Origin: Armatimonadota bacterium
GTDB lineage: Bacteria > Armatimonadota > UBA5829 > DTLH01
Length of the DNA stretch: 34,846 nt
Reading direction: 5' to 3'
NCBI GenBank assembly: GCA_038207085.1
Contig: JBBRAE010000029.1
Location: 1-34,846 of the forward strand
Shown here: piece by piece, positions 1-27,308 of the stretch
Position numbering within the stretch: position 1 is the stretch's first letter
How the letters are laid out: each line of letters starts with the position of its first letter
Notes under the pieces: model-generated
Told to the model about the DNA's origin: nothing
The model's input: only the letters and a program-made list of their open reading frames with translations
The model's database searches: none
Program-made: the position numbers and the translations under genes

Positions 1-837
1 GTCAGTGTCCTTGTGCTTGTTTCCGCTTCTGAAGAAGGAAATCGTTCGGTACTGCTTCAGTGACAGCCACTTCACATGACCGTCGCAGAACGACCAGTTT
101 TGCCCGCCGGTGTGCACGGGAGTAGGCGCTTCCTGCCACCATCTGTATATGCCATCAAAGCACGGAGTCTGAACCGGCTTGCCCCCGTTGGCTGCCAGAA
201 AATCCTGTTGACTATTCAAAGACCCGTCCCCGTGGTCGGCAAACATGACGGTCTTGGTAGGTCTGACAACCTCTGAGTCAAACGCAGTACCCGAGGCGCT
301 TCCCACATTCTCTCGACCGCCGTAGCTCTGAACCGACATCACCAGTGAAGAGTTCACGTCATAGCTTAGAGCAAAAAGCCCCTGATTTGTCCACCAGCCC
401 ACTTTGGAGTGCTTATCTGATGGGCAGACATAGATCTTGCGGGCCTTGTTGGTGTATCTCCAGAGGGTTCCCAAAGAAGGCTCAGCTCTCCACGTCCATT
501 TCGCTGTAGGAGGAGGACCTGGGTTGATGTACAGGAACGCGCCCGGTTGTGTCCACCTCCCCTTAAACCACATCCATGCGCTATAATCCTGCACTCCGTT
601 CACAATTGCCCTGCCATCTCTAAGTTCGTTTAGGGCGCCTCCGCTGGGATACCTCTGCTGCCAATCGTCCAGATACATCTTCATGGACTTGGTAAGCTGA
701 CTCAGGTTGCTGATACAGCTTGCCTGGCGAGCCTTCTCCCGTGCTCCTACGAACGCAGGGAACAGAATCGCTGCGAGAATAGCTATGATGGCGATGACCA
801 CCAATAGCTCAATTAGTGTGAAGCCTTTTCTACGCAT
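1..837 (-). CDS. Prepilin-type N-terminal cleavage/methylation protein with H-X9-DG motif (DUF1559-like); 3' end outside window
   Basis: Manual translation, no stop from 837 to 1: [48 protein letters not shown]...IYVCPSD...[25 protein letters not shown] upstream. Absent from the ORF track, probably because it has no stop in the window. Confidence 0.92.
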
Positions 838-1216
838 TGTGTATACGCTCCTTTCTCGATATCGGAATACTTAGTGTGCTTAAGTTCGGCATTGCAGACT
901 CTTTTTGGAGTTTAATTCGTTATTACAGACTGCTTGTCTACGTGAAATGTTCCGGGGTGCCAGGTAATATTTCGAGTACAGCACATTTCTCAAAGGAATA
1001 AGCCCAGCAACTATAGAAAGATTACCAATTAGATGCAGTTGCTGTCAATACTACTTGTAAGCTTTGCACAATGTTTTGATGAGTCTGGAGCGGGGGAATA
1101 CCGACTGCGGAGGTGTGACGGAACCTCTCGCATCGCACAAACCGCGCTGCTGACGGCTATCATCACAACGGAAATGAAAAATGGCACAAAGCGCCATTTG
1201 CGAGGAGGTGGGGAGA

Positions 1217-1582
1217 ATGCTCATTCAGTATATTCCATTTGTCATTTTGTTTGTAGTAGCTGTTGGGTTTGCGACGATATCACTTGTGCTCTCACACGTG
1301 CTCGGCCCGCAGCGACCGAACCCGGATAAGCTCGCGCCGTATGAATCGGGGATGGCTCCCATCGGCGGCACACGCGGCAGGTTTCCGATCAGATACTACC
1401 TCGTAGCGATGCTTTTCATACTCTTCGACATCGAGATCATATTCCTGTACCCCTGGGCCGTTATATATCTGTCCAACAGTGGCGCAAGAGGATTTCTCTT
1501 CGCCGAGATCATCGCGTTTGTCGCAGTCCTTGCGGTTGGGTACGTGTATGTCTGGCGCAAGGGTGCGCTTGACTGGGAATAG
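1217..1582 (+). CDS. nuoA: NADH-quinone oxidoreductase subunit A
   Basis: KLAPYESG, YYLVAMLFILFDIEIIFLYPW, WRKGALDWE. GGAGGTG RBS favours ATG 1217 over 1181. Confidence 0.95.
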   Translation: MLIQYIPFVILFVVAVGFATISLVLSHVLGPQRPNPDKLAPYESGMAPIGGTRGRFPIRYYLVAMLFILFDIEIIFLYPWAVIYLSNSGARGFLFAEIIAFVAVLAVGYVYVWRKGALDWE

Positions 1583-1634
1583 TATGTTTTGCTGAGGTTG
1601 TATGGGGGTAATCTTCCTCAAGCGGACAGGTGTT

Positions 1635-2114
1635 ATGTTATCAGAGCAGGCTAGAACCAAAATAATTGAAAGCAGAGACAGCTACCCCGACAGGCGATCG
1701 GCGGTAATGCCGGCACTGTACGTCGTCCAGGAAGAAGATGGACGGCTGACTGACGAAGGTATGGGCGAGGTCGCCAAGCTCCTTGAGATGCCTTATTCCG
1801 ACGTAGTAGGCGTCGCGACATTCTATTCCATGTACTTCGAGCGCCCAGTTGGCCGCTACGTTCTTGATGTGTGCAAGACGCTGTCCTGCGCGCTCCTTGG
1901 AGCCGAGAGCCTGGTTGAACACCTCTCGCGCAAGCTTGGGATCAAGGTCGGTGAGACAACTCCCGACGGGCTCTTCACCCTTCGAACGGTCGAGTGTCTG
2001 GGCGCGTGCGGCAAGGCCCCGGTGATGATGGTCGGCGACACCTACTACGAGGACCTCACGCCTGAAAAGCTCGACGGGATCATCGAGAGCCTTCGAAGAG
2101 AGGCGCAGGGTTAG
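1635..2114 (+). CDS. nuoE: NADH-quinone oxidoreductase subunit E (2Fe-2S)
   Basis: RSAVMPAL, VATFYSM, CKTLSC...VECLGACGKAP. Start could be 1602. Confidence 0.93.
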   Translation: MLSEQARTKIIESRDSYPDRRSAVMPALYVVQEEDGRLTDEGMGEVAKLLEMPYSDVVGVATFYSMYFERPVGRYVLDVCKTLSCALLGAESLVEHLSRKLGIKVGETTPDGLFTLRTVECLGACGKAPVMMVGDTYYEDLTPEKLDGIIESLRREAQG

Positions 2115-2117
2115 CCT

Positions 2118-3425
2118 ATGCAAATCGTCTTCAAACACATCGATGTGCCCGATATCGACCAGATCGACGTCTACCTGCGCGAAGGCGGTTACAAGGCGCT
2201 CGAACGCACGGTCAAAGATATGCATCCAGAAGAGATAATAGATGTAGTCTCAAAGTCCGGCCTCCGTGGCCGAGGCGGCGCGGGGTTTCCAACGGGCAAG
2301 AAATGGGCGTTTATCCCCAAAGACCCCTCACTTGCGAAGTATCTCTGCTGCAACGCCGACGAAAGCGAGCCCGGCACGTTCAAAGACCGAGAACTGATGC
2401 TCCGCAACCCTCACCAGCTCATCGAGGGGATGGCGATCTGCTGCAGGGCAATCGGCGCGAAGCGGGCGTTCATCTACGTCCGGGGCGAGTTCACCCAGCC
2501 GATAAAGACACTTAACAAAGCTCTATCGGAGGCTTACGCCAAGGGTTTTCTCGGGCACGGCATATTTGAAAGCGACACGGATATCGACATCCAGATCCAC
2601 CGTGGCGCTGGCGCATATATCTGCGGCGAGGAGTCGGCGCTTTTGAACTCACTTGCCGGTGTGCGCGGCGAGCCGAGGTTCCGTCCGCCGTTCCCCGCGA
2701 TCAAGGGGATCTACGACAGCCCGACCGTCATCAACAACGTCGAAACGCTCGCAAACGTGCCGCATATCATAAACAATGGCCCCGATTGGTTCAGATCAGT
2801 TGGCACAGAGAAGAGCCCCGGCACCAAAGTATTCTGCGTGAGCGGACACGTGAATCGCCCCGGCAACTACGAGCTTCCGATGGGCGTCACCGCGCGCGCG
2901 CTGATATTCGAGCACGCGGGTGGAGTCCTCGACGGCAAGAACCTAAAGGCGTTCATCCCGGGTGGCTCGTCTGTCCCGATGCTGACCGAAGAGAGCCTGG
3001 ACGTCGCGCTGGATTTCGAAGCGCTGATGGCCGCCGGGAGTATGCTGGGTTCGGCTGGGTTTATGGTGTTAAACGAAGACACCTGCATCGTCCGCGCGAC
3101 GCTCAACATGGCGCGTTTCTACGGACACGAGTCCTGCGGAAAATGCACCCCCTGCCGCGAAGGCACGGGCTGGATGGTCGATATGCTGGAAAGCATCGAG
3201 GACGGCGCAGGGAAGATCGGCTACATAGACCGTCTGGTCGACGTTGCAAACAGCATCAACGGACGAAGCTTCTGCGGCCTGGGCGACGCATCAGCCGCAC
3301 CTATACTATCAAGCATCAAGCATTTCAGAGAAGAATACGAAACCCACGTCCGCGAGCGGGGATGCCCGTTCAAAGGCGATGCGGGGTTTGCACTAAGAGA
3401 GGCGGGAGGAGGGGCTGGGGGTTAG
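2118..3425 (+). CDS. nuoF: NADH-quinone oxidoreductase subunit F (FMN/NADH-binding)
   Basis: SGLRGRGGAGFPTGKKW, CNADESEPGTFKDR, GAGAYICGEE, ESCGKCTPCREG...C. No extra C-terminal ferredoxin domain. Confidence 0.96.
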   Translation: MQIVFKHIDVPDIDQIDVYLREGGYKALERTVKDMHPEEIIDVVSKSGLRGRGGAGFPTGKKWAFIPKDPSLAKYLCCNADESEPGTFKDRELMLRNPHQLIEGMAICCRAIGAKRAFIYVRGEFTQPIKTLNKALSEAYAKGFLGHGIFESDTDIDIQIHRGAGAYICGEESALLNSLAGVRGEPRFRPPFPAIKGIYDSPTVINNVETLANVPHIINNGPDWFRSVGTEKSPGTKVFCVSGHVNRPGNYELPMGVTARALIFEHAGGVLDGKNLKAFIPGGSSVPMLTEESLDVALDFEALMAAGSMLGSAGFMVLNEDTCIVRATLNMARFYGHESCGKCTPCREGTGWMVDMLESIEDGAGKIGYIDRLVDVANSINGRSFCGLGDASAAPILSSIKHFREEYETHVRERGCPFKGDAGFALREAGGGAGG

Positions 3426-3565
3426 GGGTTAGGGGTTGGTGCAGCTTGATAGATTGTACCACTTGGTGAGAGATGGGTTTCGGAGACGGGGTCCCCGAAA
3501 CAACGAAAGTGGTACAGCCTTTCAAGTCTCGCCAGTCCGGCCCCCAATCCCTAACCCCCAGCCCC
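3411..3565. repeat. Nested inverted-repeat element with telomere-like heptamer arms
   Basis: GGGGCTGGGGGTTAGGGGTTAGGGG (3411-3435) pairs with CCCCCAATCCCTAACCCCCAGCCCC (3541-3565). Inner IR CTTGATAGATTGTACCACTT (3445-3464) / AAGTGGTACAGCCTTTCAAG (3507-3526). Central hairpin GTTTCGGAGAC-GGG-GTCCCCGAAAC. Confidence 0.85.
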
Positions 3566-3581
3566 AACCCCAATCCAAACC

Positions 3582-4784
3582 CTGCCTGAGCTCGTAATCT
3601 ACATCTTAATAAAGCTCGCTCTAGTAATCGTCGTTTTCGCGCTTTGGATGATGATGGTGCCTGTGCTCATCTGGCTTGAGCGGAAAGTCATCGCCGACAT
3701 CCAGATCAGGCTCGGCCCCAACCGCGTTGGCCCGTTTGGCCTGCTGCAGCCGATCGCCGACGCGCTCAAGCTCATCATGAAAGAAGAAGTGACGCCCGCG
3801 CTGGTCGACAAGTGGGTCTATCGCCTCGCGCCGATGATGATGATGGTCCCCGCGCTCCTTTCCATCGCGGCGATCCCCATCGGCGGCACGGTCACAATCG
3901 GCCCCCGGAGCTTTGCGCTTCAGATAATGGGAGCCTACCGCGGCCCCGGAGGGTTCTACGTGCCGGAGCTAGACGCGGGGATACTCCTCGTACTTGCCCT
4001 CTCGTCGCTTGGGGTCTACGGAATCGTCCTTGCGGGCTGGTCGTCGGCCAACAAATACTCTCTACTCGGCGGGATGCGCTCATCGGCTCAGATGCTCTCC
4101 TACGAACTGCCTCTGGGGGTAGCGCTGGTCGGCCCGCTGATGCTCGCCGGGACGCTTCGGCTAACCGGCGTGGTCGAATCGCAGGCGCATCCCTACATCT
4201 GGTTCATCATCCCTCAGTTTTTGGCGTTTGTGATCCACCTGATGTCGGGAATCGCCGAAACCAACCGCGCGCCGTTCGACCTTCCCGAGGCCGAGCAGGA
4301 GTTGGTCGGCGGCTACCACACCGAGTATTCAAGCTTCAGGTTCGCTATGTTTTTCATGGCCGAGTATCTGAACATGGTGACGGTGAGCGCGATCTCCGTC
4401 ACCTTCTTTCTCGGTGGATACCGTCTTTTCTGGAACGACATCGCGTGGCTCGGGCCTATCTGGTTTGGCATGAAGCTGCTCGCCGTCCTCTACTTCTTCA
4501 TGTGGATTCGTGGCACGTGGCCTCGGGTGCGCTTTGACCAGTTGATGAAGCTTGGGTGGAAGGCATCGCTCCCGATCGCACTCGCAAACGTGGTCGTAAC
4601 AGCGGCGATTCTAGCCTTCACCCCCGGCAACCCCACGCTCGTGCTCTCAATCGCAAGCGTGATCCTCAGCACAGCGGCGTTCTTCGGCCTGTCCTACGCG
4701 GTTTCCTACACACTCAGGCACAAGGCTTTCGCGCGCGAACAGGAGCTAAGACGGCGCAGGCTCGAAGGGACGGTGGAGCCGTGA
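3582..4784 (+). CDS. nuoH: NADH-quinone oxidoreductase subunit H (start uncertain)
   Basis: [70 protein letters not shown]. Frame is open from 3555 and encodes the first TM helix ([22 protein letters not shown]) upstream of the first ATG (3648). Start placed at CTG 3582 by inference. Confidence 0.9.
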
Positions 4785-5293
4785 GCTTCGAACTCTTCGC
4801 GTTTGTCATACTGGGATTAGTCGCCGTAGTCTCTGGGATAGCCGTCATAACGGCCAAGAACCCTATCCACGCCGTGATGTATCTCGTCACGAACTTTTTC
4901 GCGCTTGCGATGTTCTACCTCGTGCTCGCCGCGCAGTTCATCGCGTTTTTGCAGATACTCGTCTACGCGGGCGCGATTATGGTGCTTTTTCTCTTTGTAG
5001 TGATGATCCTGAACCTGACCGGCGCGATCGAAAGCGTGCGCGACAAGCTACCCGCACAAAAATGGATAGCCGTCGCGCTCGCCGTAGTGCTAATGCTCGA
5101 GTTCGCCGCAATAGCAGGCTCAGGGTCGATCGCGACCCCGAGGGCCGGAGCGCTCGCCGAGAGTTTCGGCACATCAAAACCGATAGGCCTGCTGCTCTAT
5201 TCACAGTATCTACTGCCATTCGAAGTAACAAGCGTGCTCTTATTGATAGCGATGGTCGGCTCGATAGTCCTTGCCAGAAGGAGGGAAGACTGA
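4781..5293 (+). CDS. nuoJ: NADH-quinone oxidoreductase subunit J
   Basis: [54 protein letters not shown] start overlaps the nuoH stop (GTGA). Confidence 0.94.
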
Positions 5294-5595
5294 TGCTTCC
5301 CATCACCTACTACGTGGGCCTCTCGGCGATGCTTTTCACCATAGGCGCGGTCGGGGTATTGATAAGGCGCAACCCGATCATCATGTTTATGTCGATCGAA
5401 CTGATGCTAAACTCGGCGAACCTCGCCTTCATCAGCTTCTCGCGCTACCTGAACCGAATGGACGGACACATATTCGTCTTCATAATAATGACCGTAGCCG
5501 CCGCCGAAGTAGCCGTCGGCCTCGGCATCATCGTCGCCATCTTCAAATCAAGAGGCGACGTGAACGTGGATGATCTAAGTGAGATGAAAGGGTGA
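5293..5595 (+). CDS. nuoK: NADH-quinone oxidoreductase subunit K
   Basis: [31 protein letters not shown]. 100 aa; TGATG overlap with nuoJ. Confidence 0.95.
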
Positions 5596-5814
5596 GGGGT
5601 GAGAGGATAGGGGTTAGGGTTGGAGCTGACGCATCTTGATAGGTTGTACCACTGAGGTCTGCTGGTAAACTTCGGGACACCTTTTCGTCCCGAAGCACAG
5701 ATGGTGAAACCGCCATCCTGAGCCATGCTGAGGCTCTCAAAGCACGAAGGATGAGCGCGGTACAATCTCTCAAGTTTCGCAAGCACCATCCCCCAGCCCC
5801 TAACCCCCAACCCC
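5590..5814. repeat. Second heptamer-armed nested inverted-repeat element
   Basis: G-rich heptamers 5590-5619 and C-rich heptamers 5790-5814. Inner IR CTTGATAGGTTGTACC (5635-5650) / GGTACAATCTCTCAAG (5759-5774). Internal CTTCGGGAC..GTCCCGAAG and CATCCTGAG..GAAGGATG hairpins. Confidence 0.82.
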
Positions 5815-5835
5815 GATTCTGACAAAGGAAGAATC

Positions 5836-7746
5836 ATGACCTACGCTTGGCTCGTGCCGGGGCTTCCGCTCCTGGGCGCGATAATAAATGGAATATTTGG
5901 ACGCTTCCTGCCGAGAAAGCTCGTGGGCTTCATCGCCTGTGCGCTCGTCGCGGGGTCGTTTGGCGTCTCGGTCGCGGTCTTCCTCCAGATTATGCGCCTC
6001 CCGGCAGCCGATCGCCACGTGACGAACCTGCTCTACAACTGGATATTCGCAGGCAGCTTCCGGGCCGAGATGAGCATACTCATCGACCCTCTATCGCTTC
6101 TGATGATGCTCGTAGTGACCGGCGTCGGCCTGCTCATACACATCTACTCGACCGGCTACATGGGCCATGACGAGGGCTTCTCCCGCTTCTTTACCTACAT
6201 GAACCTGTTCGTAGCCTCGATGCTAATATTGGTGATGGCGAGCAACTATCTCCTGATGTTCGTGGGATGGGAACTGGTCGGAATCTGTTCGTTTCTCTTG
6301 ATCAGCTTCTGGTATCACAAACCCGAGGCAGTCGCCGCTGGACGCAAGGCGTTTATCACCACCCGAATCGGCGACGTAGGCTTCACGCTCGGGGTTATTC
6401 TAATTTATCTCACATTCGGCACGCTCGCCTTCGATCCCGCATTCGCCGCAGCCGCAGGAGTCGCCAAAGCAAGTATAATCGTGATCACTACGCTGCTCTT
6501 TATCGGTGCAATAGGCAAATCAGCCCAAATCCCGCTCTACGTGTGGCTCCCCGACGCGATGGAAGGCCCGACGCCCGTGAGCGCCCTGATCCATGCCGCG
6601 ACGATGGTCACCGCGGGCGTCTACCTGATCGCCCGTTCAAGCCCGATGTTCATCCAAGTGCCCGAAGTGATGACCCTCGTCGCCACTGTCGGCGCTGTAA
6701 CGGCACTATTTGCCGCCACGATCGCGCTCGTCAACAACGACATCAAGCGCGTGCTCGCCTACTCAACGATCAGCCAGATCGGGCTTATGTTCGTCGGAGT
6801 CGGCGTCGGGGCGTTTGCGGCGGGGCTTTTCCACCTCATGACCCACGCGTTTTTCAAGGCGCTTCTCTTCCTTGGAGCCGGAAGCGTGATGCACGCGCTC
6901 GACGGCGACACCGACATGCGCGCAATGGGCGGCCTAAAGCCCAAAATGCCCGTCACCTATTGGACGATGCTCATCGCCGCGCTCGCGATCGCCGGAATCC
7001 CGCCCCTCTCAGGGTTCTTCAGCAAAGATGAGATCCTCCTCGGCGCATACTCCAGCGGCCACCCCGTGATCTACGCGCTTGGCCTCGCGACGTCGCTTCT
7101 AACGGCTTTCTATATGTTCAGGCTGTTCTTCAAGACGTTCCACGGTGAGCGAAAAATGAGCCAAGAGCGCTGGGAGCACGCCCACGAGTCACCGAGATCG
7201 ATGACCGCTCCGCTCGTGCTCCTGGCCATCGGCGCAGCGTTTGCAGGTGTGGTCGGAATCCCCGAGTTCCTCGGCGCGCACGGCGCGAGTTGGGCGAACA
7301 TAATCGGCAGGTTCCTTGCCCCCGCAATCGCCGTAGGAGAGCACCCCGCAGTCTCAACGACCCTTGCCTATACGCTCATGGCCGCCGCAATAGCCGTAGG
7401 GGTGATCGGCCTCGCAACCGCGTGGTATTTCTACATAGTCAAACCCGGCACGGCGGCAAAAATGGCGGAGCGCGCCCCCGCCGTTTACAGCACTCTTGTA
7501 AACAAATACTGGGTAGATGAGCTCTATAACGCCGTATTTGTCCGGCCGGGCAAGGCGTTCGCCGCGTTTCTCTGGAAGTTCGTAGACTCCGTCATAATCG
7601 ACGGCACCGTAAACGGCCTCGCCCGCGCCGTGGGAGGCCTCTCGATCATCGGCAGGCGGATTGAAACCGGCTATATCAGAAACTACGCGCTCGCGATCTT
7701 CCTCGGCGCAATCATTCTTGTAGGATACCTGGTGATAGGCAGATGA
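5836..7746 (+). CDS. nuoL: NADH-quinone oxidoreductase subunit L
   Basis: GKSAQIPLYVWLPDAMEGPTPVSALIHAATMVTAG, HLMTHAFFKALLF, FFSKDEI, C-terminal DGTVN..ETGYIRNY. Confidence 0.96.
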   Translation: MTYAWLVPGLPLLGAIINGIFGRFLPRKLVGFIACALVAGSFGVSVAVFLQIMRLPAADRHVTNLLYNWIFAGSFRAEMSILIDPLSLLMMLVVTGVGLLIHIYSTGYMGHDEGFSRFFTYMNLFVASMLILVMASNYLLMFVGWELVGICSFLLISFWYHKPEAVAAGRKAFITTRIGDVGFTLGVILIYLTFGTLAFDPAFAAAAGVAKASIIVITTLLFIGAIGKSAQIPLYVWLPDAMEGPTPVSALIHAATMVTAGVYLIARSSPMFIQVPEVMTLVATVGAVTALFAATIALVNNDIKRVLAYSTISQIGLMFVGVGVGAFAAGLFHLMTHAFFKALLFLGAGSVMHALDGDTDMRAMGGLKPKMPVTYWTMLIAALAIAGIPPLSGFFSKDEILLGAYSSGHPVIYALGLATSLLTAFYMFRLFFKTFHGERKMSQERWEHAHESPRSMTAPLVLLAIGAAFAGVVGIPEFLGAHGASWANIIGRFLAPAIAVGEHPAVSTTLAYTLMAAAIAVGVIGLATAWYFYIVKPGTAAKMAERAPAVYSTLVNKYWVDELYNAVFVRPGKAFAAFLWKFVDSVIIDGTVNGLARAVGGLSIIGRRIETGYIRNYALAIFLGAIILVGYLVIGR

Positions 7747-9338
7747 AAGACTACATTCTCTCAATTCTCATATTCCTGCCAATCGCCGCAGGCCTTGTGA
7801 CGCTTCTGATCCCAAGGCGACACGACGCGCTGATCCGATGGTTCACGCTTCTTGCGAGCCTCGCGACGTTCGCGCTCTCCGTCCCGCTATTCTTCTGGTT
7901 CAACTCAAGAACAGCCGCGTTTCAATTTGAGGAGTTCCGTCCCTGGGTGCAGATCCTCCCAAGAATAGTCGATGGGGCGACCCAGTACGCGATCAACTAC
8001 CACCTCGGCATCGACGGAATCAGCCTGATGCTCGTGCTATTGGCGACGTTTCTCACGCCGGTCGCGATGCTGGCGTCATGGCGCGGTATCACCGAGCGCG
8101 CCCGTGAGTTCTACTTCACATTGCTCCTTCTCGAAGGCGCGATGCTCGGAGTGCTCCTCTCGCTCGACCTGATACTCTTCTACGTATTCTGGGACGCGAT
8201 GCTGATCCCGATGTATTTCCTGATCGGCGTCTGGGGCAGCGGCAACCGAGTCTACGCCTCGATCAAGTTCTTCATATACACGCTCGTCGGAAGCCTGCTC
8301 ATGCTCGCGGGGATCGTCTATCTCGGCCTGACAAGCCCCGCAGGCGTCACATTCGACGTAGTTGAGCTCGCCCGAGCCGGGGTCCCCTACGGCCTGCAAT
8401 ACTGGCTGTTCCTGGCCTTCGGCCTGGCGTTTGCGATCAAGGTGCCGATCTTCCCGTTCCACACATGGCTCCCCGACGCTCACACCGAGGCCCCAACCGC
8501 CGGAAGCGTGATCCTCGCTGGCGTGTTGCTAAAAATGGGCGCATACGGGTTTTTGCGATTCTGCCTGCCGCTTTTCCCTGAGGCCTCAGTCACGTTTGCG
8601 CCTCTAATGGCGACCTTGGGCGTAATCGGCATCATCTACGGCGCTCTAGTCGCCTACGTCCAGCCCGACATGAAGCGCCTGGTCGCCTATTCAAGCGTAA
8701 GCCACCTCGGGTTCGTCGTGCTCGGCATTTTCGCCTTCAATATGGAAGGAATCCAGGGCGCGCTGATCGTAATGGTCGCCCACGGCCTCGCGACAGGCGC
8801 TCTGTTCCTGTGTGTAGGAATGATCTACGACCGCCGCCACACTCGAATGCTCGCCGACTTCGGCGGCGTATGGCGTGTGATGCCCGCCTTCGGCGCACTC
8901 TTCATGATCGCATCCCTGGCCTCGCTCGGCCTGCCGGGGCTATCCAACTTCCCCGGTGAGTTTTTGGTAATTGTCGGGGCCTTCGCCGCCAAGGGCTGGC
9001 TCTTCGCCTTCCTTGCGGCAAGCGGAGTAGTCTTCGCCGCGGTCTACGTGCTCTGGCTCTTTGGCCGAGTTATGCAGGGTCCGACCGAAAACCCGGACGT
9101 AAAAACAATGCGCGACCTCTCCGTCCGGGAGCTATTCGTCCTGGCCCCGGTCGCCCTGTTCATAGTGCTCCTCGGCCTCCTACCCGGCCCGATGCTCGCG
9201 CGAACGTCGCAGTCGGCACACGCGCTCGTCCAGACGATCAAACAAGCCCAGATTCGTGTTCGGGCGGATTTGCAATCCGCGCCGGAAAAGGCAAGCCGGG
9301 ATCTGCGATCCCACACCGAGCAGGAGACGAAAAGATGA
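7743..9338 (+). CDS. nuoM: NADH-quinone oxidoreductase subunit M
   Basis: GIDGIS, AIKVPIFPFHTWLPDAHTEAPTAGS, AYSSVSH, LGLPGLSNFPGEF. ATGA overlaps at both ends. Confidence 0.96.
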   Translation: MKDYILSILIFLPIAAGLVTLLIPRRHDALIRWFTLLASLATFALSVPLFFWFNSRTAAFQFEEFRPWVQILPRIVDGATQYAINYHLGIDGISLMLVLLATFLTPVAMLASWRGITERAREFYFTLLLLEGAMLGVLLSLDLILFYVFWDAMLIPMYFLIGVWGSGNRVYASIKFFIYTLVGSLLMLAGIVYLGLTSPAGVTFDVVELARAGVPYGLQYWLFLAFGLAFAIKVPIFPFHTWLPDAHTEAPTAGSVILAGVLLKMGAYGFLRFCLPLFPEASVTFAPLMATLGVIGIIYGALVAYVQPDMKRLVAYSSVSHLGFVVLGIFAFNMEGIQGALIVMVAHGLATGALFLCVGMIYDRRHTRMLADFGGVWRVMPAFGALFMIASLASLGLPGLSNFPGEFLVIVGAFAAKGWLFAFLAASGVVFAAVYVLWLFGRVMQGPTENPDVKTMRDLSVRELFVLAPVALFIVLLGLLPGPMLARTSQSAHALVQTIKQAQIRVRADLQSAPEKASRDLRSHTEQETKR

Positions 9339-11290
9339 GAATCCCACTCGACAACTGGCTGATTCTCATCCCCGAGCTTCTGCTCCTAATCGCCGCAATG
9401 AAGGTGCTATTAATAGGCGCTTTCACCCGGGGCTGGATGCGCCGCGCCATTCCCTGGGGCTCATTTGCCGCAGTGGCGCTTGTGATAGTCGTCGAAGTGC
9501 TGCTCTGGAACCGTCCAACCGTTGCCTTCAACGGAATGCTCGTAAGCGACAACTTCACGATTCTGGTCAACATCGCGATACTCATCGGAACCGCGCTTGC
9601 GATACTCTTGTCAGTCGATTACTCCCGCAGAGAGGAGCTTCCCCAGGGCGAGTATTACGGCCTGATAATGCTCTCGACGCTTGGCATGCTCCTGATGGCC
9701 GCAAGCTCGAACCTGATAATGATCTTCCTCTCCCTTGAGGTGCTTTCGATTGCGCTTTACGTGCTCACGTGCATCGCCCGCCATCGAGCGACCTCCCAGG
9801 AAGCTGGGATGAAGTATTTCCTGCTCGGCTCGTTCGCCTCGGCGTTTCTGGTCTACGGCTCGGCGCTGGTCTACGGCGCGACGGGCTCTCTCTCACTCCC
9901 TGAGATCGCACAAGCCCCCGCGAACACCCTGCTCTACGCCGGAGCCGCGCTCATCATAGTGGGTCTCGGCTTCAAAGTCGCGGTAGTCCCGTTCCAGATG
10001 TGGACCCCCGACGTCTACGAGGGCGCGCCGACCTCGGTCACGGCGTTTATGTCGGTTGGGACCAAAGCCGCCGCCTTTGCCGCGCTTTTGCGTGTGCTTC
10101 TCATAGCTTTCCCGACGATCCAGCCTGTCTGGGTCGACGCGATATGGCTAATCGCCGTCCTCACGATGATCGTTGGAAATGTGCTCGCGATCACCCAATC
10201 ATCGATCAAGCGCCTGCTCGCCTATTCCAGCATCGCCCACGCCGGCTACATACTGGTCGCCGTAACCGCCGCAAACACCCTTGCGGGCAAGACAGGCGCA
10301 AACGAGCTCGCCATACAGAGCATCCCGTTCTATCTGATCACCTACGCCTTCATGAACATCGGCGCGTGGGCGGTCGTCACCGCAGTCACCAAGAAGGGCG
10401 ACGAAGCCACCGCGCTCGACGACTACGCGGGGCTTTTCTGGAACCACCCCGCACTTGCGACTGCGATGGGGCTTTTCATGTTCGCGCTCGCCGGTCTTCC
10501 CCCGACGGCCGGGTTCACCGCCAAGGTATTCGTGTTTGTGGGCGCCTACCGAGCGGGTATGATCGGTTTGGTTATAGCAGCGGTTGTTACGTCGATCATA
10601 TCGGCCTATTACTACCTGCGCGTGACCGTGATGATGTTTATGCAGCGCCCGAAGCAGTCGCCCGTTGTCAGCCTCACATGGCCCACGGCGACCGCGATCG
10701 CGATATCCGCCGCCGCAACGATCTGGCTGCTCATATTCCCGGCAAGCACAAGATCGTTCGACCCGTCGGTCGCGAACATAGCGCCATCAGCTATTGGCTA
10801 TAGAATTACAGAAGGGACACCGAACATGATAACAGAAGGACAGAAAGCGCCGGAGTTCTCGCTTCCGACAATCGGCGGCAAGACCATATCGCTTCGGGAC
10901 TTCGAGGACAAACAGAATGTTATACTATATTTCTATCCTAAGGATGATACGCCTGGCTGCACGAAAGAAGCCTGCTTCTTCCGTGATCTTGAAGCAGAGT
11001 TCAAAGCGGCCAATACGGCGATCCTCGGCGTCAGCACGGACAGCGTAGCAAGCCACGAGAAGTTCGCCGAAAAGTTCCATCTCCCCTTCCCTCTCCTTGC
11101 CGACGAAGAGAAAACCGTCGTAGAGAGCTACGGCGTCTGGAAAGAGAAAATCAACTACGGCAAGAACTATATGGGAGTAGAGCGCACCACCTTCATCATC
11201 GACAAACACGGCACGGTCCGCAAGATCTACCCCAAAGTAAAAGTAGAAGGCCACGTCGACGAGGTGCTGGAGTTCGTAAAGAGTCTATGA
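9335..11290 (+). CDS. nuoN: NADH-quinone oxidoreductase subunit N reading in frame into a BCP/PrxQ peroxiredoxin
   Basis: EAGMKYFLLGS, FKVAVVPFQMWTPDVYEGAPT, LAYSSIAHAGY, AGLPPTAGFTAK, SAYYYLRV. No stop before the peroxiredoxin domain. Confidence 0.9.
   Translation: MRIPLDNWLILIPELLLLIAAMKVLLIGAFTRGWMRRAIPWGSFAAVALVIVVEVLLWNRPTVAFNGMLVSDNFTILVNIAILIGTALAILLSVDYSRREELPQGEYYGLIMLSTLGMLLMAASSNLIMIFLSLEVLSIALYVLTCIARHRATSQEAGMKYFLLGSFASAFLVYGSALVYGATGSLSLPEIAQAPANTLLYAGAALIIVGLGFKVAVVPFQMWTPDVYEGAPTSVTAFMSVGTKAAAFAALLRVLLIAFPTIQPVWVDAIWLIAVLTMIVGNVLAITQSSIKRLLAYSSIAHAGYILVAVTAANTLAGKTGANELAIQSIPFYLITYAFMNIGAWAVVTAVTKKGDEATALDDYAGLFWNHPALATAMGLFMFALAGLPPTAGFTAKVFVFVGAYRAGMIGLVIAAVVTSIISAYYYLRVTVMMFMQRPKQSPVVSLTWPTATAIAISAAATIWLLIFPASTRSFDPSVANIAPSAIGYRITEGTPNMITEGQKAPEFSLPTIGGKTISLRDFEDKQNVILYFYPKDDTPGCTKEACFFRDLEAEFKAANTAILGVSTDSVASHEKFAEKFHLPFPLLADEEKTVVESYGVWKEKINYGKNYMGVERTTFIIDKHGTVRKIYPKVKVEGHVDEVLEFVKSL
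10826..11290 (+). CDS. bcp: BCP/PrxQ peroxiredoxin domain (possibly also translated independently)
   Basis: MITEGQKAPEFSL...YFYPKDDTPGCTKEACFFRD...ERTTFIID. Own ATG at 10826 preceded by GAAGGGA; TAGAAT at 10801-10806. Confidence 0.88.
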   Translation: MITEGQKAPEFSLPTIGGKTISLRDFEDKQNVILYFYPKDDTPGCTKEACFFRDLEAEFKAANTAILGVSTDSVASHEKFAEKFHLPFPLLADEEKTVVESYGVWKEKINYGKNYMGVERTTFIIDKHGTVRKIYPKVKVEGHVDEVLEFVKSL

Positions 11291-11596
11291 TTCGCCGGGA
11301 CTATCCGACCTGGTCCGCTCCCTGGCAATATCACCAATGTGGTCATAGACCTCGCGACGATGCCCGACGCGCACGATGAGAACGACAACTTTTTCGTCCT
11401 GGACAACATACACAACGCGATAGTCGCCCTGTCGCACTCTGTAGCACGAGTCTATTCCGCCGAGCTTCTTTGACACGGATGGTCGAGGATCGTCCGCGAG
11501 CGCGGCAATAGCATCGGTCAGCAATTTTTGGGCGTCACGCGGCAGTTTTTTGATCTCCCGACGCGCGCCGGATGTCACCCTTACCTTGTATCTCAC
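11285..11596 (-). CDS. Type II toxin, RelE/ParE family
   Basis: YKVRVTSGARREIKKL...DPRPSVSKKLGG...YRVRQGDYRVVY...VGHRREVY. GTGA overlap with the antitoxin. Confidence 0.9.
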   Translation of the reverse strand: MRYKVRVTSGARREIKKLPRDAQKLLTDAIAALADDPRPSVSKKLGGIDSCYRVRQGDYRVVYVVQDEKVVVLIVRVGHRREVYDHIGDIARERTRSDSPGES

Positions 11597-11853
11597 AGCC
11601 CAAGTTCAGATCTGAGTTCGTCCAGCGAAACCGTGCTTTCAGTTTCCGCAAGCCGTTTCTTCACCACTTCGACATCCAGCCGGTCCTCAAGCTCTTCAAT
11701 CAGCCTTTCGAGCAGCGCAAGGTCTTCCATAGGAACAAGCGCCGCCAGTTCCTTGCCTCGACGAGTAAACACAACCCGTTCCTTGCCATAGGCCGCGCGG
11801 TTGATCAATTCTGCGAGCTGGTTTCTCGCTTCAGCGGTAGTAACCGTAGTCAT
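11593..11853 (-). CDS. Type II antitoxin, Phd/YefM family
   Basis: MTTVTTAEARNQLAELINRAAYGKERVVFTRRGKELAALV with an acidic C-terminus. Confidence 0.9.
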   Translation of the reverse strand: MTTVTTAEARNQLAELINRAAYGKERVVFTRRGKELAALVPMEDLALLERLIEELEDRLDVEVVKKRLAETESTVSLDELRSELGL

Positions 11854-11871
11854 ATCGACACCTACCTTACG

Positions 11872-11906
11872 AATTGTACAATTGAGTGTTACGGTACATT
11901 ATACCA
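11872..11906 (-). promoter_or_regulatory. TA promoter (extended -10) and palindromic operator
   Basis: Minus-strand TGgTATAAT (11898-11906). Perfect palindrome AATTGTACAATT at 11872-11883, between the -10 and the antitoxin start. Confidence 0.6.
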
Positions 11907-11970
11907 CACTTGACAACCTCCTGCCTGATAGGTTATCGTTCAACCGTTAGCTTGTCATCAGGGGAACCTC

Positions 11971-13161
11971 ATGCGGACATTCACCTATTCAATACTTGCG
12001 ATTCTTGCCCTCGCGCTCAACGGCTGCGGCGGTGATGGCGGAACGAGCGGCGGCGGAGGAGGCACACCGGGCGGAAGTGGGATCACGATCTCCCCGGACC
12101 CCGCGGTCACACCCACAAGCAGCTCCGTTCAGCTCTCAGTGAGCGGCGGAACCGTCACCTGGGACGTTCAGGAAGAAGGCGGCGGCTCGATCAACGCAAG
12201 CGGACTCTACACCGCGCCGAGCACCCCCGGCACATACCACGCAGTCGCGACAAGCGTCACAGATAGCACCAAGACCGACTCAGCCGAGTTGATCGTCGTC
12301 CCCTGGTCAGCCTCCGGCGGCCCGTCTTCCGGCGGCTACAGCCTCGCTGCGGTATGGGGAAGTGAGGGCTCCGGCAGGGGGCAGTTCCGCGACCCGACGG
12401 GTATCGCGCTCGACTCATCAGGCAGAGTCTACGTCTCCGACTCAGGGAACCGGCTAGTCCAGCGATTCGCAAACAACGGGCTCTTCCTCGACCAATGGTC
12501 GACCGCAAGCAACATCGTCGCGGCGGGAGACGCTGGCCCGATCGCTGTCAACTCCGCGGGCGACGTGTTCGTGCTCTACGGCCCGGGCGGCTACTACAAC
12601 CGGATCTACAAGCGCACATCGACGGGTTCGAGCCTGAACTGGGGGATCAGCACATTCCCCGGCTTCGATATCGACGTGACCGGCACAACTATCTACGCCA
12701 GCAACCCGACCAACACCGGATACCCCTCAGTGGTGCGCATAGTCAACCAAACAACAGGCGGCTTCTGGGTAGGCGGGCCAGGCGAGCTCGAAGACCCGAC
12801 CGGCGTCGCAATCGACTCCTCCGGCTACGTCTACGTCGCCGACAGGGCGCGAAGGGTCGTCATCAAGTATAACAGCACCGACCGCACACCCGTCATAACG
12901 ATCAACCTCGCCACCCGTGGCATACAGAACCCAAGCGGCATCGACGTCGACCCTTCCGGCAATATCTACATAGCCGACGTGACCACGACCAGGATATTCA
13001 AGCTAACCAACACCGGAAGCCCCCTGACAAGCTGGGAAACAGCCGCCTCCGGCCCCGGCGGCCACGACGGCCCGATCTGGGTCAAAGTAGACTCCGCCGG
13101 CGGCGTATTCGTCCTGGACAGCGGAAACAACCGGGTGCTGAAGTACGTGCCGCACAACTAA
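11971..13161 (+). CDS. Lipoprotein with Ig-like domain and NHL-repeat beta-propeller
   Basis: Lipobox-like LALNGC, Gly linker, GSINASGLYTAP Ig-like segment, repeated PTGIALDSSGRVYVSD / PTGVAIDSSGYVYVAD / PSGIDVDPSGNIYIAD. TTGACA at 11910-11915 upstream. Confidence 0.85.
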   Translation: MRTFTYSILAILALALNGCGGDGGTSGGGGGTPGGSGITISPDPAVTPTSSSVQLSVSGGTVTWDVQEEGGGSINASGLYTAPSTPGTYHAVATSVTDSTKTDSAELIVVPWSASGGPSSGGYSLAAVWGSEGSGRGQFRDPTGIALDSSGRVYVSDSGNRLVQRFANNGLFLDQWSTASNIVAAGDAGPIAVNSAGDVFVLYGPGGYYNRIYKRTSTGSSLNWGISTFPGFDIDVTGTTIYASNPTNTGYPSVVRIVNQTTGGFWVGGPGELEDPTGVAIDSSGYVYVADRARRVVIKYNSTDRTPVITINLATRGIQNPSGIDVDPSGNIYIADVTTTRIFKLTNTGSPLTSWETAASGPGGHDGPIWVKVDSAGGVFVLDSGNNRVLKYVPHN

Positions 13162-13178: not shown

Positions 13179-13231
13179 GAGGGCCATCCCAAGCCGTGCT
13201 GAGCCTGTCGAAGCACGAAGGATGAGCCCTC
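13179..13231. repeat. REP-like palindrome (CTGAGCCTGTCGAAG type) between convergent genes
   Basis: GAGGGC-CATCC...GTGCTGAGCCTGTCGAAGCAC...GGATG-A-GCCCTC. Closely resembles the hairpin at about 5714-5753. Confidence 0.7.
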
Positions 13232-14645: not shown

Positions 14646-14810
14646 GTAGGGGCAGACCAACGTGTCTGCCCAAAAACTCTCCGTCGCAGAGAAATGGCGG
14701 ACACACTGGTCCGCCCCTACAAGCGCAGCCATTGAAGCTTGTGCACCCGCCATCCTGAGCCCCGTCGAAGGATGAGCGAGGCACCATCTCCCAACCCCCA
14801 ACCCCTAGTC
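14646..14810. repeat. Composite repeat: inverted GTAG-REP doublet, CATCCTGAG..TCGAAGGATG hairpin, heptamer tract
   Basis: GTAGGGGCAGACCAACGTGTCTGCCC (14646-14671) and GGCGGACACACTGGTCCGCCCCTAC (14696-14720). Hairpin at 14748-14778; CCCAACC/CCCAACC/CCTAG tract at about 14790-14810. Confidence 0.8.
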
Positions 14811-17800
14811 TCCAATCTCCATCAAACTCGCAGCCCCAATCCCGGCGATCTCCGGCTGGTACATCGCCTGCACCAGCGCCCCCGGCGCGTTGTAGCGGCC
14901 CGGAATCCATGCGCGCATCTCGTATTGGAGCGTCGACTTGCCCTTGGGAAGCGTGTCTACATAGAACGACACCCGTTCGTCACGCACGTCCATATCAGCC
15001 CACCAATAGTCCCACTCCCAGGGCTCCATCCGCCCCCGGTCAAACGCCTCGCAACCTGCGGGCAGATAGTCCTCGACCAACACGTGCCGGTACTCCTGCG
15101 GCGAGTTCACTATCACCCGGACCTGCATCGTGTCGCCGCTTCGGAACCTCGAACTGATGGAGTTAGACGGCCAGAGCTCGTTGTAGCGCAGGCTCTCGTT
15201 CCACCTCGGGACGAACTTTCTATACTCGCGGGAAACGGTGATCCCCGAGCCGGTGATCGTCCGCGGCGAGTCGTCGCGCTCTATATACTGAGTTGCCTCG
15301 ATGGTATAGTAGAGCGTCCCCGTCCCCTCTTTCACCAGACGAATCACGTTTGAGCCTTTGCCAACGTCGCGCGGACGGATGACGATCTCCCGCTCCGGCG
15401 CGAACACCGAGGCCTTGTCAAAGCGCGCGCCCCCGATCTCCCTGCCGTTGTCGAACACGGTCACTTTGCAGTCGGCCCCAAGCTCTTTGGTGCGGGCGAG
15501 GTAGTCGCTTGCGGCATAGATCACCATAGCCGTGTCGCGAGTCGACGACCAGTGGTTGTAGGCCCTTCGGCGCATAATCCCGCGCATAATGTCGGCAAGC
15601 CTTGGGTCCTCGGGGGTCAGCCGGTTGACGACCTGCATCGCAAGCGCCGTCACTTCAACATTGGACGAATCATAATCCCAGTCGCGCCTGCTCTTCCAGT
15701 AAACCTCTCCCCTGTCGATCTCAGCAGCGCTCCAAAGCCGCCTCAAGTATTCCCGAGCCCGCTCACCCTGTCCCAGATTGGCAAGCGTAAGCGCCACAAG
15801 CGCCGTGTCATAAGTGTCGCCCACGCCCGTTCGAGTAATCAGATCGATCTTCGCCCGCGCGACATCTGCTTTGCCCACAATCGAGAGCACGTAGGCAGCA
15901 TAGGAAAGATTCGGCGAAACCTTGCTCTGCCCCGCGACCTTCCGTGCGAGGTAGTCGATACCCTGCCTGAGAATCTCATCGTTCACCGCAAACCCCGCCT
16001 CGCGCGCCGTCTGCAGCCCGTAGACGACGTACGCCGTCATCCAGATATCTTCCTCGCCGTACTCGCACCATCCCCAGCCGCCGTTTTCGTTCTGGAAGTC
16101 GTAGAGCCGGTTCAGCCCTCGCCCGACCATATCCGGCAGGCGTTTCTTCAGCCCCTCGTTCTCGATCCCGAGGTTCTTCAGCATCCTCCAGATGACGACA
16201 TCGGGCAAAAACCCGCTCATAGTCTGCTCTGTACAGCCGTAGGGGTACGCGGCGAGGTAGTCGAGGCTTCCGATCAGCGACGACGCGAGCGAGGGCGCAA
16301 CTCTCACCCGAATCTCGCTCGCCCCACTGACCGCGTCCCCCCGAATAACGAGCTTCTCAAAGGTCGTATCCCCTGAAAGCGTCCCAACGCGAGTCTCGAC
16401 CTCCCTCTGTCCGTGCGGACGAACGGGGATTGTAAGCTCCATCGCGTCCTGCGCCCGTTCGCCGACCGCATACGCCGACACCGTCACCGGCCCAGGCCCA
16501 AGAACCGAAACCCACCACTCTGCCCGAGCCGTCCCGTCGCGATCGACACGCACCCGGCTGCTCGCGTGCCCCTCTACACGCAGCCCCGGAGCGCGAAGCG
16601 TCACATTCACCCGTTCATCACGGGACGTATAGTTGTGGACAATCGCCGAGACAAGCGCCCTGTCACCCTGCACCAGGAACCGAGGTATCTCAAGTCGAAC
16701 CAACAGCGGCTTGGTGCAGACGACGCTTGAAACGCACTGCCCGACCGCCGTGTCCACCGTGCAAGCCCGAGCCGTCGCCCGCCAGGTAGTCAAGTTGTCT
16801 GGAAGCTTCACCGACACCCGCGCAAGTCCCCGCGAGTCGGTCACAACATCGGCGCGCCAGTAGGCGGTGTCGAGAAAGTCCTTGCGCACCTTGCCCGTAA
16901 ACCCGCCCTTGTCCCCTGAGAGATACACGTTCGGGAACGAGTAGCGAGTGCTTACGGAATTGGGCTGGGCCGAATAGAAAAAGTCGCGAATCGGGGTCGT
17001 GTCGTCCGGCGCAATCGCATAAATTGCCTCATCGACCACACCCACAGACACCTCCGCCTGCACCGGCCTCCCCCGCCCATCGAGCGCCTTTATCACGTAA
17101 TTCGCTGTCTCCCCAGGCTGATACTTACGCTTGTCGGGGGTGACAGAAAGGCTGATCAGCTTTTCGCCAAGCGACACCTTCGCCCGCGCCTCGTCCTGCG
17201 CGAGCCGCTTCTTGCTCGCATAGCAGACCGACACGTAAAAGTTCGGGCGGTACTCGGCCTTGATCGGAATCTCGACCACGGTGGACTTGTCAGCAAGCTT
17301 GACTACCCTGTAGTCATAGAGCCGCCGCCCCTCCACCGTCACAAGTGCCGACGCGCCCTTGGCCTTGGTATTGATCATCACCCGCGCGACATCTCCGGGG
17401 TTGTAGCTCTTTTTGTCGAGCACCACTTGCAGATCGGGGTAGTTGTACCCCCCAAAGTCGCCCTCACCCGTCACCCAGACGTACTCCGAGCCCCTGATCT
17501 CGCGCCTCTTAGAGTCTTTGGCACGCACGCGGATCACATAAGACCCGGGCTTCTCAACCTTGAACGAAAACCGCGCCAGCCCCGCCCCGTCGGTGCGGAC
17601 AGTCCCGCCCGCGACCCGCTCGAAGCGCTCCTCATGGTTTGCCGAGTCCCAGTCAGTGAGATTGGCCGAAACCTCGACATCAACCCCAGCCTGAGGTTTG
17701 CCATCGTAATCAAGCGCCCGGACTTCAACCACGGACTCCTCACCAGCCGAAACCACATACTGCAGGGGCTGAACGCGCAGGCTGAACGTCCCCTGCGTCG

Positions 17801-19517: not shown

Positions 19518-19519
19518 TG

Positions 19520-20962: not shown

Positions 20963-21029
20963 CCAAATCCCTCCAGCTCCAAATAAGCGATCCCATCCAT
21001 CTCAGGATAACGCCTGAGGCAGGCACAAG

Positions 21030-27278: not shown

Positions 27279-27308
27279 AGGACTTGCAGACGAACCGGAG
27301 GAGATGGA

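Follow-up and report, generated by a model that had tools for sequence, protein, structure and literature searches.

A nuo operon without nuoB, C, D, G and I is probably part of a dispersed but ordinary gene set for complex I in an Armatimonadota-like genome

When a bacterial operon encodes the NADH-oxidizing pair and the entire membrane arm of complex I, and neither NuoG nor a quinone module, does it specify a new kind of enzyme or is it one piece of a gene set dispersed over the genome? NuoB, C, D and I form the quinone module of complex I, and NuoG carries the Fe-S clusters that link NuoF to NuoI. The question is raised by a stretch of 34,846 nt (hereafter the window), in which the plus strand carries, between positions 1217 and 11290, the tightly coupled genes nuoA-E-F-H-J-K-L-M-N; this order, recovered with Pfam and NCBIfam profiles, is the one proposed in the initial annotation. 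Two readings had been offered there, relocation of the five genes or a new complex. The evidence is consistent with relocation, itself something that we infer rather than observe, and the new complex found no support. We consider it very probable that the window holds part of an ordinary gene set for 14-subunit complex I, belonging to an Armatimonadota-like genome with nuoB, C, D, G and I at other loci.

Nuo models match all nine proteins, with NuoE, F, H, K, L, M and N scoring above the curated NCBIfam cut-offs for complex I, whereas hydrogenase-4, Mrp and F420 models give far lower scores. Likewise, tblastn queries from a Brocadia operon (L002) recover the nine subunits with E values of 1e-30 to 0. 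In the NADH module, nuoE (1602-2114, +; 170 aa) reaches 184 bits against TIGR01958 (cut-off 142.4), the best solved relatives of its product are the 24-kDa subunit of complex I, and the cluster motif C-x4-C...C-x3-C is retained in alignment with all four cysteines intact. The distance of about 50 nt previously given between nuoA and nuoE holds from an alternative start at the second ATG (1635; 52 nt), but not from the first (1602), which leaves 19 nt. The product of nuoF (2118-3425, +; 435 aa) scores 607 bits against the TIGR01959 equivalog (cut-off 558.65), and its best solved match is NuoF of M. smegmatis complex I (510 bits, versus 441 for HydB). A glycine-rich stretch, the acidic ADESEPGT and the cysteine stretch ESCGKCTPC are unchanged or nearly so, and presumably correspond to FMN/NADH binding and cluster N3. 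The protein has complex I length and only the four NuoF domains; Pfam detected no extra Fe-S domains in it, including the extra ferredoxin domains of the HydB type. NADH-oxidizing NuoF and its partner NuoE are both present, with the motifs conserved in complex I.

All seven subunits of the P module (NuoA, H, J, K, L, M and N) were found as well, encoded throughout on the plus strand. The nuoA gene (1217-1582; 121 aa from the ATG at 1217, with GGAGG upstream) matches PF00507 (E 3.7e-37), and its product is 47% identical to Brocadia NuoA over 120 aa. For nuoH (3582-4784), the match to PF00146 has an E value of 5e-118 and that to NF004741 scores 340.6 bits (cut-off 305); the best solved matches are NuoH/Nqo8, with 363 residues aligned (11-373), including a conserved loop of 13 residues. 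Homology and the first transmembrane helix of NuoH begin at about 3582-3588, with the tblastn match starting at 3588, upstream of the first ATG, GTG or TTG (the first ATG is at 3648). No canonical start is available for this helix, only CTG at 3582 or ATC at 3573. The GTG start of nuoJ (4781-5293; PF00499, E 2e-38) overlaps the nuoH stop by 4 nt, and the junction sequence bears out the GTGA overlap described earlier. The ATG of nuoK (5293-5595; GGAGGG upstream) overlaps the nuoJ stop by one base, and its product scores 128 bits against NF004320 (cut-off 57). Full-length NuoL (5836-7746; 636 aa) reaches 765 bits against NF005141 (cut-off 556) and 756 against TIGR01974, compared with 306 for hydrogenase 4 subunit D and 225 for subunit B. 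NuoM (7743-9338; 531 aa) scores 611 bits against TIGR01972 (cut-off 263.8), and NuoN proper (9335-10786; about 484 aa) scores 433 against TIGR01770 (cut-off 332.6). In a C-terminal alignment the nuoN stop codon is missing at the point where all 10 nearest homologues end, and therefore the frame runs on to 11290. The read-through portion (10787-11290, +) encodes a 13-residue linker followed by a Bcp/PrxQ (AhpC/TSA) peroxiredoxin (PF00578, E 6.5e-41; NF006960, 154.5 bits, cut-off 140), which retains its own ATG (10826) with a purine-rich stretch ahead. By these matches, the nine proteins are canonical subunits of complex I, and their cofactor motifs are intact.

The unusual nuoH start and nuoN end could reflect decay rather than function. 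An anaerobic lineage possessing [FeFe]-hydrogenase maturases might have lost its quinone module and nuoG, leaving nine genes that are turning into pseudogenes. Besides the first helix of NuoH without a proper start, abutted by a repeat, and the lost nuoN stop, repeat elements have entered two intergenic spacers, and the hydE, hydG and ferredoxin-oxidoreductase genes in the window point to an anaerobic lifestyle. Nevertheless, we regard such decay as quite unlikely. About 9.5 kb of coding sequence contains neither a frameshift nor an internal stop, translational coupling is kept at five junctions, every conserved stretch inspected in alignments of NuoE, NuoF and NuoH is intact, and identity between NuoF and its nearest homologue reaches 86%.

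The five remaining genes are absent from the full window and not just from the operon, because tblastn of both strands with the Brocadia NuoB, C, D, G and I set returned nothing better than E=0.045, so that their reported absence extends to all 34,846 nt. The best values were 2.5, 2.4, 0.045 and 6.5 for NuoB, C, D and I, respectively, and 1.5 for NuoG, which had no Pfam match in the window either. The area searched includes about 23 kb downstream and 1.2 kb upstream of the operon, and neither flank contains any of the five. Thus neither NuoG nor the quinone module of complex I is encoded within the window.

It had also been observed that a repeat occupies the place where nuoG would sit. A palindromic repeat does fill the nuoF-nuoH spacer (about 3400-3587), with the nuoF stop codon inside its left arm. 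The left arm is G-rich and the right arm C-rich, with an inner hairpin; the inverted arms (3411-3435 and 3541-3565) are 92% complementary, the predicted RNA fold has an energy of -108.1 kcal/mol (z = -7.25), and no Rfam family matched the element. However, the repeat is not specific to this site, since the nuoK-nuoL spacer, from which no gene is missing, holds a second copy that shares both termini (5594-5820; -107.7 kcal/mol, z = -5.4), and related pieces occur at 13183-13227 and 14736-14811. These repeats bear on whether the gene set is an assembly artefact, in which some of the five genes, nuoG being the likeliest, would have been lost through the collapse of two flanking palindromic repeats, or the contig would be chimeric. 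A repeat of about 190 nt at the F-H junction with other copies in the window is what such an error would need, the collapse of two direct copies leaves one intact copy, as observed, and two related loci (L003 and L011) keep nuoG at exactly this position. Even so, an artefact seems to us improbable: a member of the same repeat family also separates nuoK from nuoL without the loss of a gene, and repeat collapse cannot produce the A-E junction (19 nt, no repeat) or the 4-nt overlap of nuoH and nuoJ. Moreover, all nine genes have an even GC3 (0.64-0.79), and nuoG stands alone at a distant locus in Fimbriimonas ginsengisoli (PMC4072686).

The arrangement of related loci is consistent with dispersal. 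We compared at least 80 NuoH-related loci among the matches listed, 78 of which contain both nuoH and nuoJ; they are not independent, with about 50 from Terriglobia and 13 from Poribacteria, and they are distant relatives, as NuoH identity to the window is at most 55%, so that closer genomes may exist beyond this list. Among these, nuoJ directly follows nuoH with no NuoI match between them in 70 of 78, and NuoI intervenes in the other eight, which fits the earlier suggestion that the H-J coupling is an old arrangement. Several phyla have collinear partial operons from which one or another subset of B, C, D, E, F, G and I is missing. Examples among the matches listed are A-H-J-K-L-M-N (L063), A-E-H-J-K-L-M-N (L008), A-EF-G-H-J-K-L (L003 and L011), A-H-J at a contig end (L005), A-C-D-E-F-G-H-J-K-L-M-N in Terriglobia and A-B-C-D-E-F-G-H-J.. 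in Poribacteria. The operons of L008, L003/L011, L063 and Terriglobia resemble that of the window in being collinear, ancestral-order subsets in which the membrane genes stay side by side and peripheral-arm genes, nuoI in every case, are left out. None of them, at NuoH identities of 47-55% among the matches listed, has the same subset, and the exact A-E-F-H-J pattern was found in none of the 80 listed loci; the closest either keep nuoG (L003 and L011) or are without nuoF (L008). By its gene content and order, then, the window operon appears to belong to this collinear series of partial nuo operons. Its nearest named relatives among the matches listed are Armatimonadota (66-77% identity for NuoF, 57-65% for NuoN), and in a NuoH tree the window pairs with the Armatimonadota locus L005 (SH-aLRT 84), a pairing that joins two long branches.

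A sequenced relative offers a parallel. In the complete genome of F. ginsengisoli Gsoil 348 (Armatimonadetes), whose whole nuo set is present according to the main text, the 14 genes are spread over five loci: nuoA/C/D/E (OP10G_3429-3422), B and I (3920-3921), F alone (4660), G alone (1073) and H-J-K-L-M-N (0710-0704), with nuoJ directly after nuoH (PMC4072686 Table S19). Both this genome and the window have nuoH followed by J-K-L-M-N without nuoI, keep nuoB, nuoI and nuoG away from the membrane genes, and preserve the ancestral order inside each fragment; the likeness is one of gene arrangement and nearest phylum. They differ in that nuoA and nuoE of F. ginsengisoli lie beside nuoC and nuoD with nuoF alone, whereas A, E and F of the window are joined directly to H-J-K-L-M-N. 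Nitrospina gracilis NUO-2 is also distributed over loci, namely nuoACHIJKLMN, nuoEGD, a lone nuoB2 and a lone nuoF2, although its NuoF is reported to be atypical, without an FMN site and with extra clusters, and the window NuoF is typical (PMC3578206). Compared with the canonical 14-gene nuoA-N operon (Brocadia L002; E. coli, T. thermophilus), the nine window proteins are orthologue-grade and in the same relative order, but all five of B, C, D, G and I are missing. The 11-subunit complex I-like enzymes share with the window a reduced nuo set and a full membrane arm; as described, they have lost NuoEFG at the genome level and kept B, C, D and I, the opposite of what the window has at the locus level (PMC11238625; bioRxiv 10.1101/2025.03.13.643058). 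With NuoE and NuoF present and B, C, D and I absent from the locus, the operon does not encode an enzyme of this type. The nuo set of the organism is probably not reduced at the genome level.

The more radical reading pairs NuoE/F and the membrane arm with a catalytic module from outside the Nuo family, such as one of the hydrogenase type, in a new energy-converting complex; we judge this highly improbable. Its appeal is that the 34.8 kb truly contain none of the five genes and that hydE and hydG are present in the window. No described complex with this subunit set is known to us or turned up in the literature searched, which argues faintly in its favor. However, hydE and hydG, once cited as a nearby hint of a hydrogenase module, are 18 kb from the nuo operon, on the opposite strand and behind unrelated genes (a toxin-antitoxin pair, an alpha-2-macroglobulin and PKD/NHL proteins). 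No hydF or hydA adjoins them, and the 34.8 kb encode neither a catalytic hydrogenase subunit nor any other redox partner. The subunits best match complex I, scoring as Nuo and not as Hyf, Ech, Mbh or HydB/HydC. Furthermore, NuoG is the attachment point of NuoE/F in complex I structures, and no wiring to a membrane arm is known for NuoE/F without it. Scattered but complete nuo sets are also documented in the same phylum (PMC4072686).

Two known hydrogenase types were considered individually. A group 4 [NiFe]-hydrogenase (Ech/Hyf/Mbh) does not fit, with no hydrogenase subunit in the window, the NuoL model scoring best and NuoA, J and K present; nor does an electron-bifurcating [FeFe]-hydrogenase HydABC, as the window has the maturases HydE and HydG but no HydA, and NuoF is 435 aa long, versus about 600 aa with extra Fe-S domains for HydB. 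The window also contains a gene for the gamma subunit of a 2-oxoacid:ferredoxin oxidoreductase with no alpha or beta neighbor. This lone gene and the lone hydE/hydG pair are in keeping with scattered subunit genes.

It would be a very long shot that the genome truly lacks NuoB, C, D, G and I and that NuoE/F and a seven-subunit proton-pumping arm use an undescribed electron-output module, for example one related to the [FeFe]-hydrogenase to which the maturases in the window belong; the result would be an energy-converting complex of a new class. In a milder variant, the five subunits may come from a second nuo operon of the 11-subunit type, and a single quinone module would then serve two membrane arms. 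Such sharing is hinted at by L003 and L011, with their tandem '...L-M-N, atpB, atpE, A-EF-G-H-J-K-L' loci.

Returning to the dispersed gene set, which we prefer, the window fragment would encode the NADH-oxidizing flavoprotein pair NuoE/NuoF and seven membrane subunits in ancestral order, other loci would supply NuoG and the quinone module of NuoB, C, D and I, and the products of all loci would assemble into a normal NADH:quinone oxidoreductase. The five genes likely lie elsewhere in the window's own genome, as they do in the sequenced relative, and the operon therefore probably does not represent a new kind of enzyme. Only a genuine lack of the five genes in the genome would make the finding an important one. 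Under the ordinary reading its importance is modest, and A-E-F-H-J-K-L-M-N becomes a further arrangement among the collinear partial nuo operons, a series in which soluble-arm genes leave, nuoI and nuoB first, while the membrane genes remain together. Annotation pipelines and metabolic reconstructions of fragmented MAGs that demand a complete operon would err here by calling complex I incomplete. Hence, modules that seem to be missing at the locus level in Armatimonadota-like genomes should not be taken as missing functions.

At positions 1217-11290 of the forward strand, nine complex I genes are arranged as nuoA, E, F, H, J, K, L, M, N, as judged from open reading frames, Pfam and NCBIfam, and this is the order proposed in the initial annotation. 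Neighboring genes are separated by 3 nt at E-F, 156 nt at F-H and 240 nt at K-L, and they overlap by 1 nt at J-K and by 4 nt at H-J, L-M and M-N, the H-J overlap being the GTGA already reported there. The nuoA-nuoE gap, previously put at about 50 nt, has this length (52 nt) only if nuoE begins at its second ATG, but measures 19 nt from the first. Pattern scans for promoters and terminators across positions 800-12000 gave nothing above shuffled sequences, and no internal operon boundary was found. The lack of nuoB, C, D, G and I likewise holds for the entire 34.8 kb. When NuoA-N from the canonical 14-gene operon of Brocadia (locus L002) were used as tblastn queries against both strands of the whole window, the nine subunits were matched at E values from 2e-30 to 0, and the best value for NuoB, C, D, G or I was 0.045; none of the window's other large open reading frames is one of these five subunits by Pfam or NCBIfam. 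We consider it very probable that the operon is one part of a nuo gene set of the ordinary kind, split between loci of an Armatimonadota-like genome.

The encoded proteins themselves are canonical complex I subunits. NuoE, F, H, K, L, M and N pass the curated NCBIfam cut-offs for complex I (607 bits against 558.65 for NuoF with TIGR01959, 765 against 556 for NuoL with NF005141, and 611 against 263.8 for NuoM with TIGR01972), and the window's nuo proteins obtain much lower scores with the hydrogenase-4, Mrp antiporter and F420H2 dehydrogenase models. The 435-aa NuoF has the four NuoF domains and no others in Pfam, and its best solved relative is NuoF of Mycobacterium smegmatis complex I (8e9g_F, 510 bits), compared with 441 bits for a HydB hydrogenase subunit. 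On alignment to solved relatives, its glycine-rich, ADESEPGT and ESCGKCTPC cysteine stretches are unchanged or nearly so, and we take these to serve FMN/NADH binding and cluster N3. NuoE matches the complex I 24-kDa subunit best and keeps its four cysteines, and about 360 residues of NuoH, including the 13-residue loop, align with solved NuoH/Nqo8.

The initial annotation had raised the possibility that a hydrogenase-type module docks onto these subunits, given hydG and hydE nearby, to make a new energy-converting complex. The two maturases are real, with HydE (TIGR03956, 381 bits) and HydG (TIGR03955, 523 bits) both above their NCBIfam cut-offs and encoded by adjacent genes at 29417-31894. 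However, these genes lie on the reverse strand, opposite to the operon, with unrelated genes in between (a ParE/Phd pair and genes for an NHL protein, a VanW protein, a 1582-aa alpha-2-macroglobulin and a 1551-aa PKD protein), and no gene for a catalytic hydrogenase subunit, hydA included, and no hydF is found in the window by Pfam or NCBIfam. An [FeFe]-hydrogenase is probably encoded elsewhere in this organism. Moreover, NuoE and NuoF attach through NuoG in established complex I structures, and we know of no path to the membrane arm for a complex that has E and F yet lacks G. It is thus more likely that nuoG is located elsewhere than that a machine lacking this subunit exists, and a new energy-converting complex is extremely improbable. 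In the region between the operon and the maturases, the bacterial alpha-2-macroglobulin gene (14805-19553) is adjoined by a 480-aa open reading frame with no family match (19520-20962, reverse strand); this frame falls in a stretch of extreme AT skew (0.56 at positions 20001-21000) that also has short direct repeats at 20116-20193.

A repeat had been reported where nuoG would sit, and the F-H spacer is indeed palindromic over about 190 nt (3400-3587), with a G-rich left arm that contains the nuoF stop codon, a C-rich right arm and a hairpin inside (-108 kcal/mol, z = -7.25). The association is not specific, however. The K-L spacer contains another element that shares these termini but differs in its core (5594-5820; z = -5.4), and related pieces are present at 13183-13227 and 14736-14811. 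Because members of this family, whose G-rich and C-rich termini carry GGGGTTAGGGG-type runs, recur in this way, it is a common intergenic element of the genome and not a marker of nuoG loss. A second family is represented by 166-nt copies at 21414-21579 and 29208-29373. No Rfam family matched anywhere in the window at gathering thresholds, so the repeats do not belong to a known RNA family; both families are palindromic, strongly folding and intergenic, and are MITE- or REP-like. The further copies in the window, together with the one filling the F-H spacer, might have caused the assembly to collapse at the repeat, with loss of a gene between nuoF and nuoH, but this is very unlikely for an element that is common between genes, the K-L copy included. 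There is also a small chance that real recombination between two repeat copies took out a gene at this place.

Both nuoH and nuoN have unusual ends. NuoH homologues carry about 28-30 residues ahead of the WLERK motif. In the window, the coding sequence for this part starts at about nt 3582, in a frame that is open from 3561 and has its first ATG, GTG or TTG only at 3648, within the first transmembrane helix; the only candidate starts for a full-length protein are CTG at 3582 and ATC at 3573, and no Shine-Dalgarno-like sequence lies ahead of either codon or of the ATG. A palindromic repeat abuts this start region (3561-3650, forward strand). The ten nearest homologues of NuoN all stop two residues past a common S-V-A motif, a position at which the window has no stop, and the open reading frame (9335-11290, forward strand) continues through a 13-residue linker into an in-frame Bcp/PrxQ peroxiredoxin that retains its own ATG (10826). 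A conserved NuoN-peroxiredoxin architecture is ruled out, since the peroxiredoxin domain occurs in none of the 119 other NuoN homologues listed, and the 62 further long proteins that carry a related peroxiredoxin domain all lack a NuoN domain. The fusion is therefore either an isolated loss of the stop codon or an error in the sequence, rather than a known architecture. Convergent with the operon are genes for a ParE/RelE-like toxin (11285-11596, reverse strand), which overlaps the final 6 nt of the fused frame, and a Phd/YefM-like antitoxin (11593-11853, reverse strand). The absence of ATG, GTG or TTG ahead of the first helix of nuoH, the lost nuoN stop and the repeats inserted in operon spacers could be signs of early decay. 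Nevertheless, about 9.5 kb of sequence is free of frameshifts and internal stops, the motifs are preserved and NuoF reaches 86% identity with its closest homologue, and a decaying operon is therefore most doubtful.

An ordinary split gene set is also consistent with gene order elsewhere. We compared at least 80 loci from a search of genome contigs with NuoH as query and 10 kb flanks, all of them distant (47-54% NuoH identity) and not independent (about 50 are from Terriglobia and 13 from Poribacteria), with gene order called by tblastn using Brocadia references (E<=1e-5). Both nuoH and nuoJ were found in 78 of the listed loci. In 70 of these, nuoJ follows nuoH with no NuoI match, at gaps of -1 to 247 nt in 69 and of 484 nt in one, and in the other eight nuoI lies between them, with gaps of 442-708 nt. 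Similarly, of the 56 listed loci in which nuoC comes after nuoA, 38 have no intervening nuoB (gaps 0-187 nt). The listed loci form a collinear series of partial to full operons: A-H-J and then the contig end in an Armatimonadota locus (L005), A-H-J-K-L-M-N in Blastocatellia (L063), A-E-H-J-K-L-M-N in Eisenbacteria (L008), A-EF-G-H-J-K-L with fused EF in two uncultured bacteria (L003 and L011), A-C-D-E-F-G-H-J-K-L-M-N in Terriglobia, including the complete Terriglobus roseus genome (L015), A-B-C-D-E-F-G-H-J-K-L-M-N in Poribacteria and others, and the full 14-gene order in Brocadia and a few others. The exact order A-E-F-H-J-K-L-M-N was not found among the at least 80 listed loci, and the window's gene set fits into the series between L008 and L003/L011. 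According to section 8 of a genome-level survey (bioRxiv 10.1101/2025.03.13.643058), complex I is complete in most Acidobacteriota species, and we infer from this that Terriglobia carry at other loci the nuoB and nuoI that these operons lack. Within the series, the Eisenbacteria locus has a lone nuoE, without nuoF, between nuoA and nuoH (9038-10936), and the fused NuoE-NuoF (5422-7305 in L003, 5120-7036 in L011) is a single protein of 627-638 aa. The latter two operons are preceded by nuoL-M-N of another operon and atpB-atpE, and no B, C, D or I is present at these loci; such a tandem arrangement may point to a pair of membrane arms, perhaps with a shared quinone module.

The nearest taxonomically labelled relatives of NuoF (66-77% identity; best match overall 86%) and NuoN (57-65%) are all from Armatimonadota/Armatimonadetes MAGs. 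The NuoF matches at 71-86% identity include two relatives with longest contigs of 75,402 and 56,283 bases, lengths that recur among the NuoN matches, which suggests that nuoF and nuoN may share one contig there. A tree built from NuoH of the window and of the at least 80 loci joins the window with L005, an Armatimonadota locus (SH-aLRT 84), although both are long branches and their join is liable to artefact. Upstream of the operon, positions 1-837 (reverse strand) encode a protein with a prepilin-type N-terminal methylation domain, DUF1559 and an H-X9-DG C-terminal motif. This family is usually held to be a planctomycete signature, and here it occurs alongside nuo proteins that have their closest relatives in Armatimonadota. 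An origin in Planctomycetota, to which this gene would point, is rejected in view of the NuoN and NuoF homologues and the NuoH tree.

The armatimonadete Fimbriimonas ginsengisoli provides an example of how such a set can be arranged, as its complete genome has all 14 nuo genes in five places (PMC4072686, Table S19): nuoA, C, D and E (OP10G_3429, 3428, 3425 and 3422), nuoB and I (OP10G_3920 and 3921), nuoF (OP10G_4660), nuoG (OP10G_1073), and nuoH, J, K, L, M and N (OP10G_0710, 0709, 0708, 0707, 0706 and 0704). There nuoJ directly follows nuoH, as it does in the window; nuoB and nuoI are paired at another locus, and nuoG stands by itself (PMC4072686). The rRNA operon of this genome is also split and its dnaA-region genes are scattered (PMC4072686), and the genome of a second armatimonadete, Chthonomonas calidirosea, is termed "seemingly disorganized" in the abstract of PMC4959169. 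Outside this phylum, NUO-2 of Nitrospina gracilis is a further scattered set on record (PMC3578206); a keyword scan of Spero et al. in mBio (PMC4453560) found no wording on split nuo loci. Further lone subunit genes are present in the window, namely hydE-hydG without hydF or hydA and the gamma subunit of a 2-oxoacid:ferredoxin oxidoreductase (27210-27857, forward strand), with no alpha, beta or delta gene adjoining. With a split gene set of this kind, nuoB, C, D, G and I would be encoded at putative other loci of the same genome.
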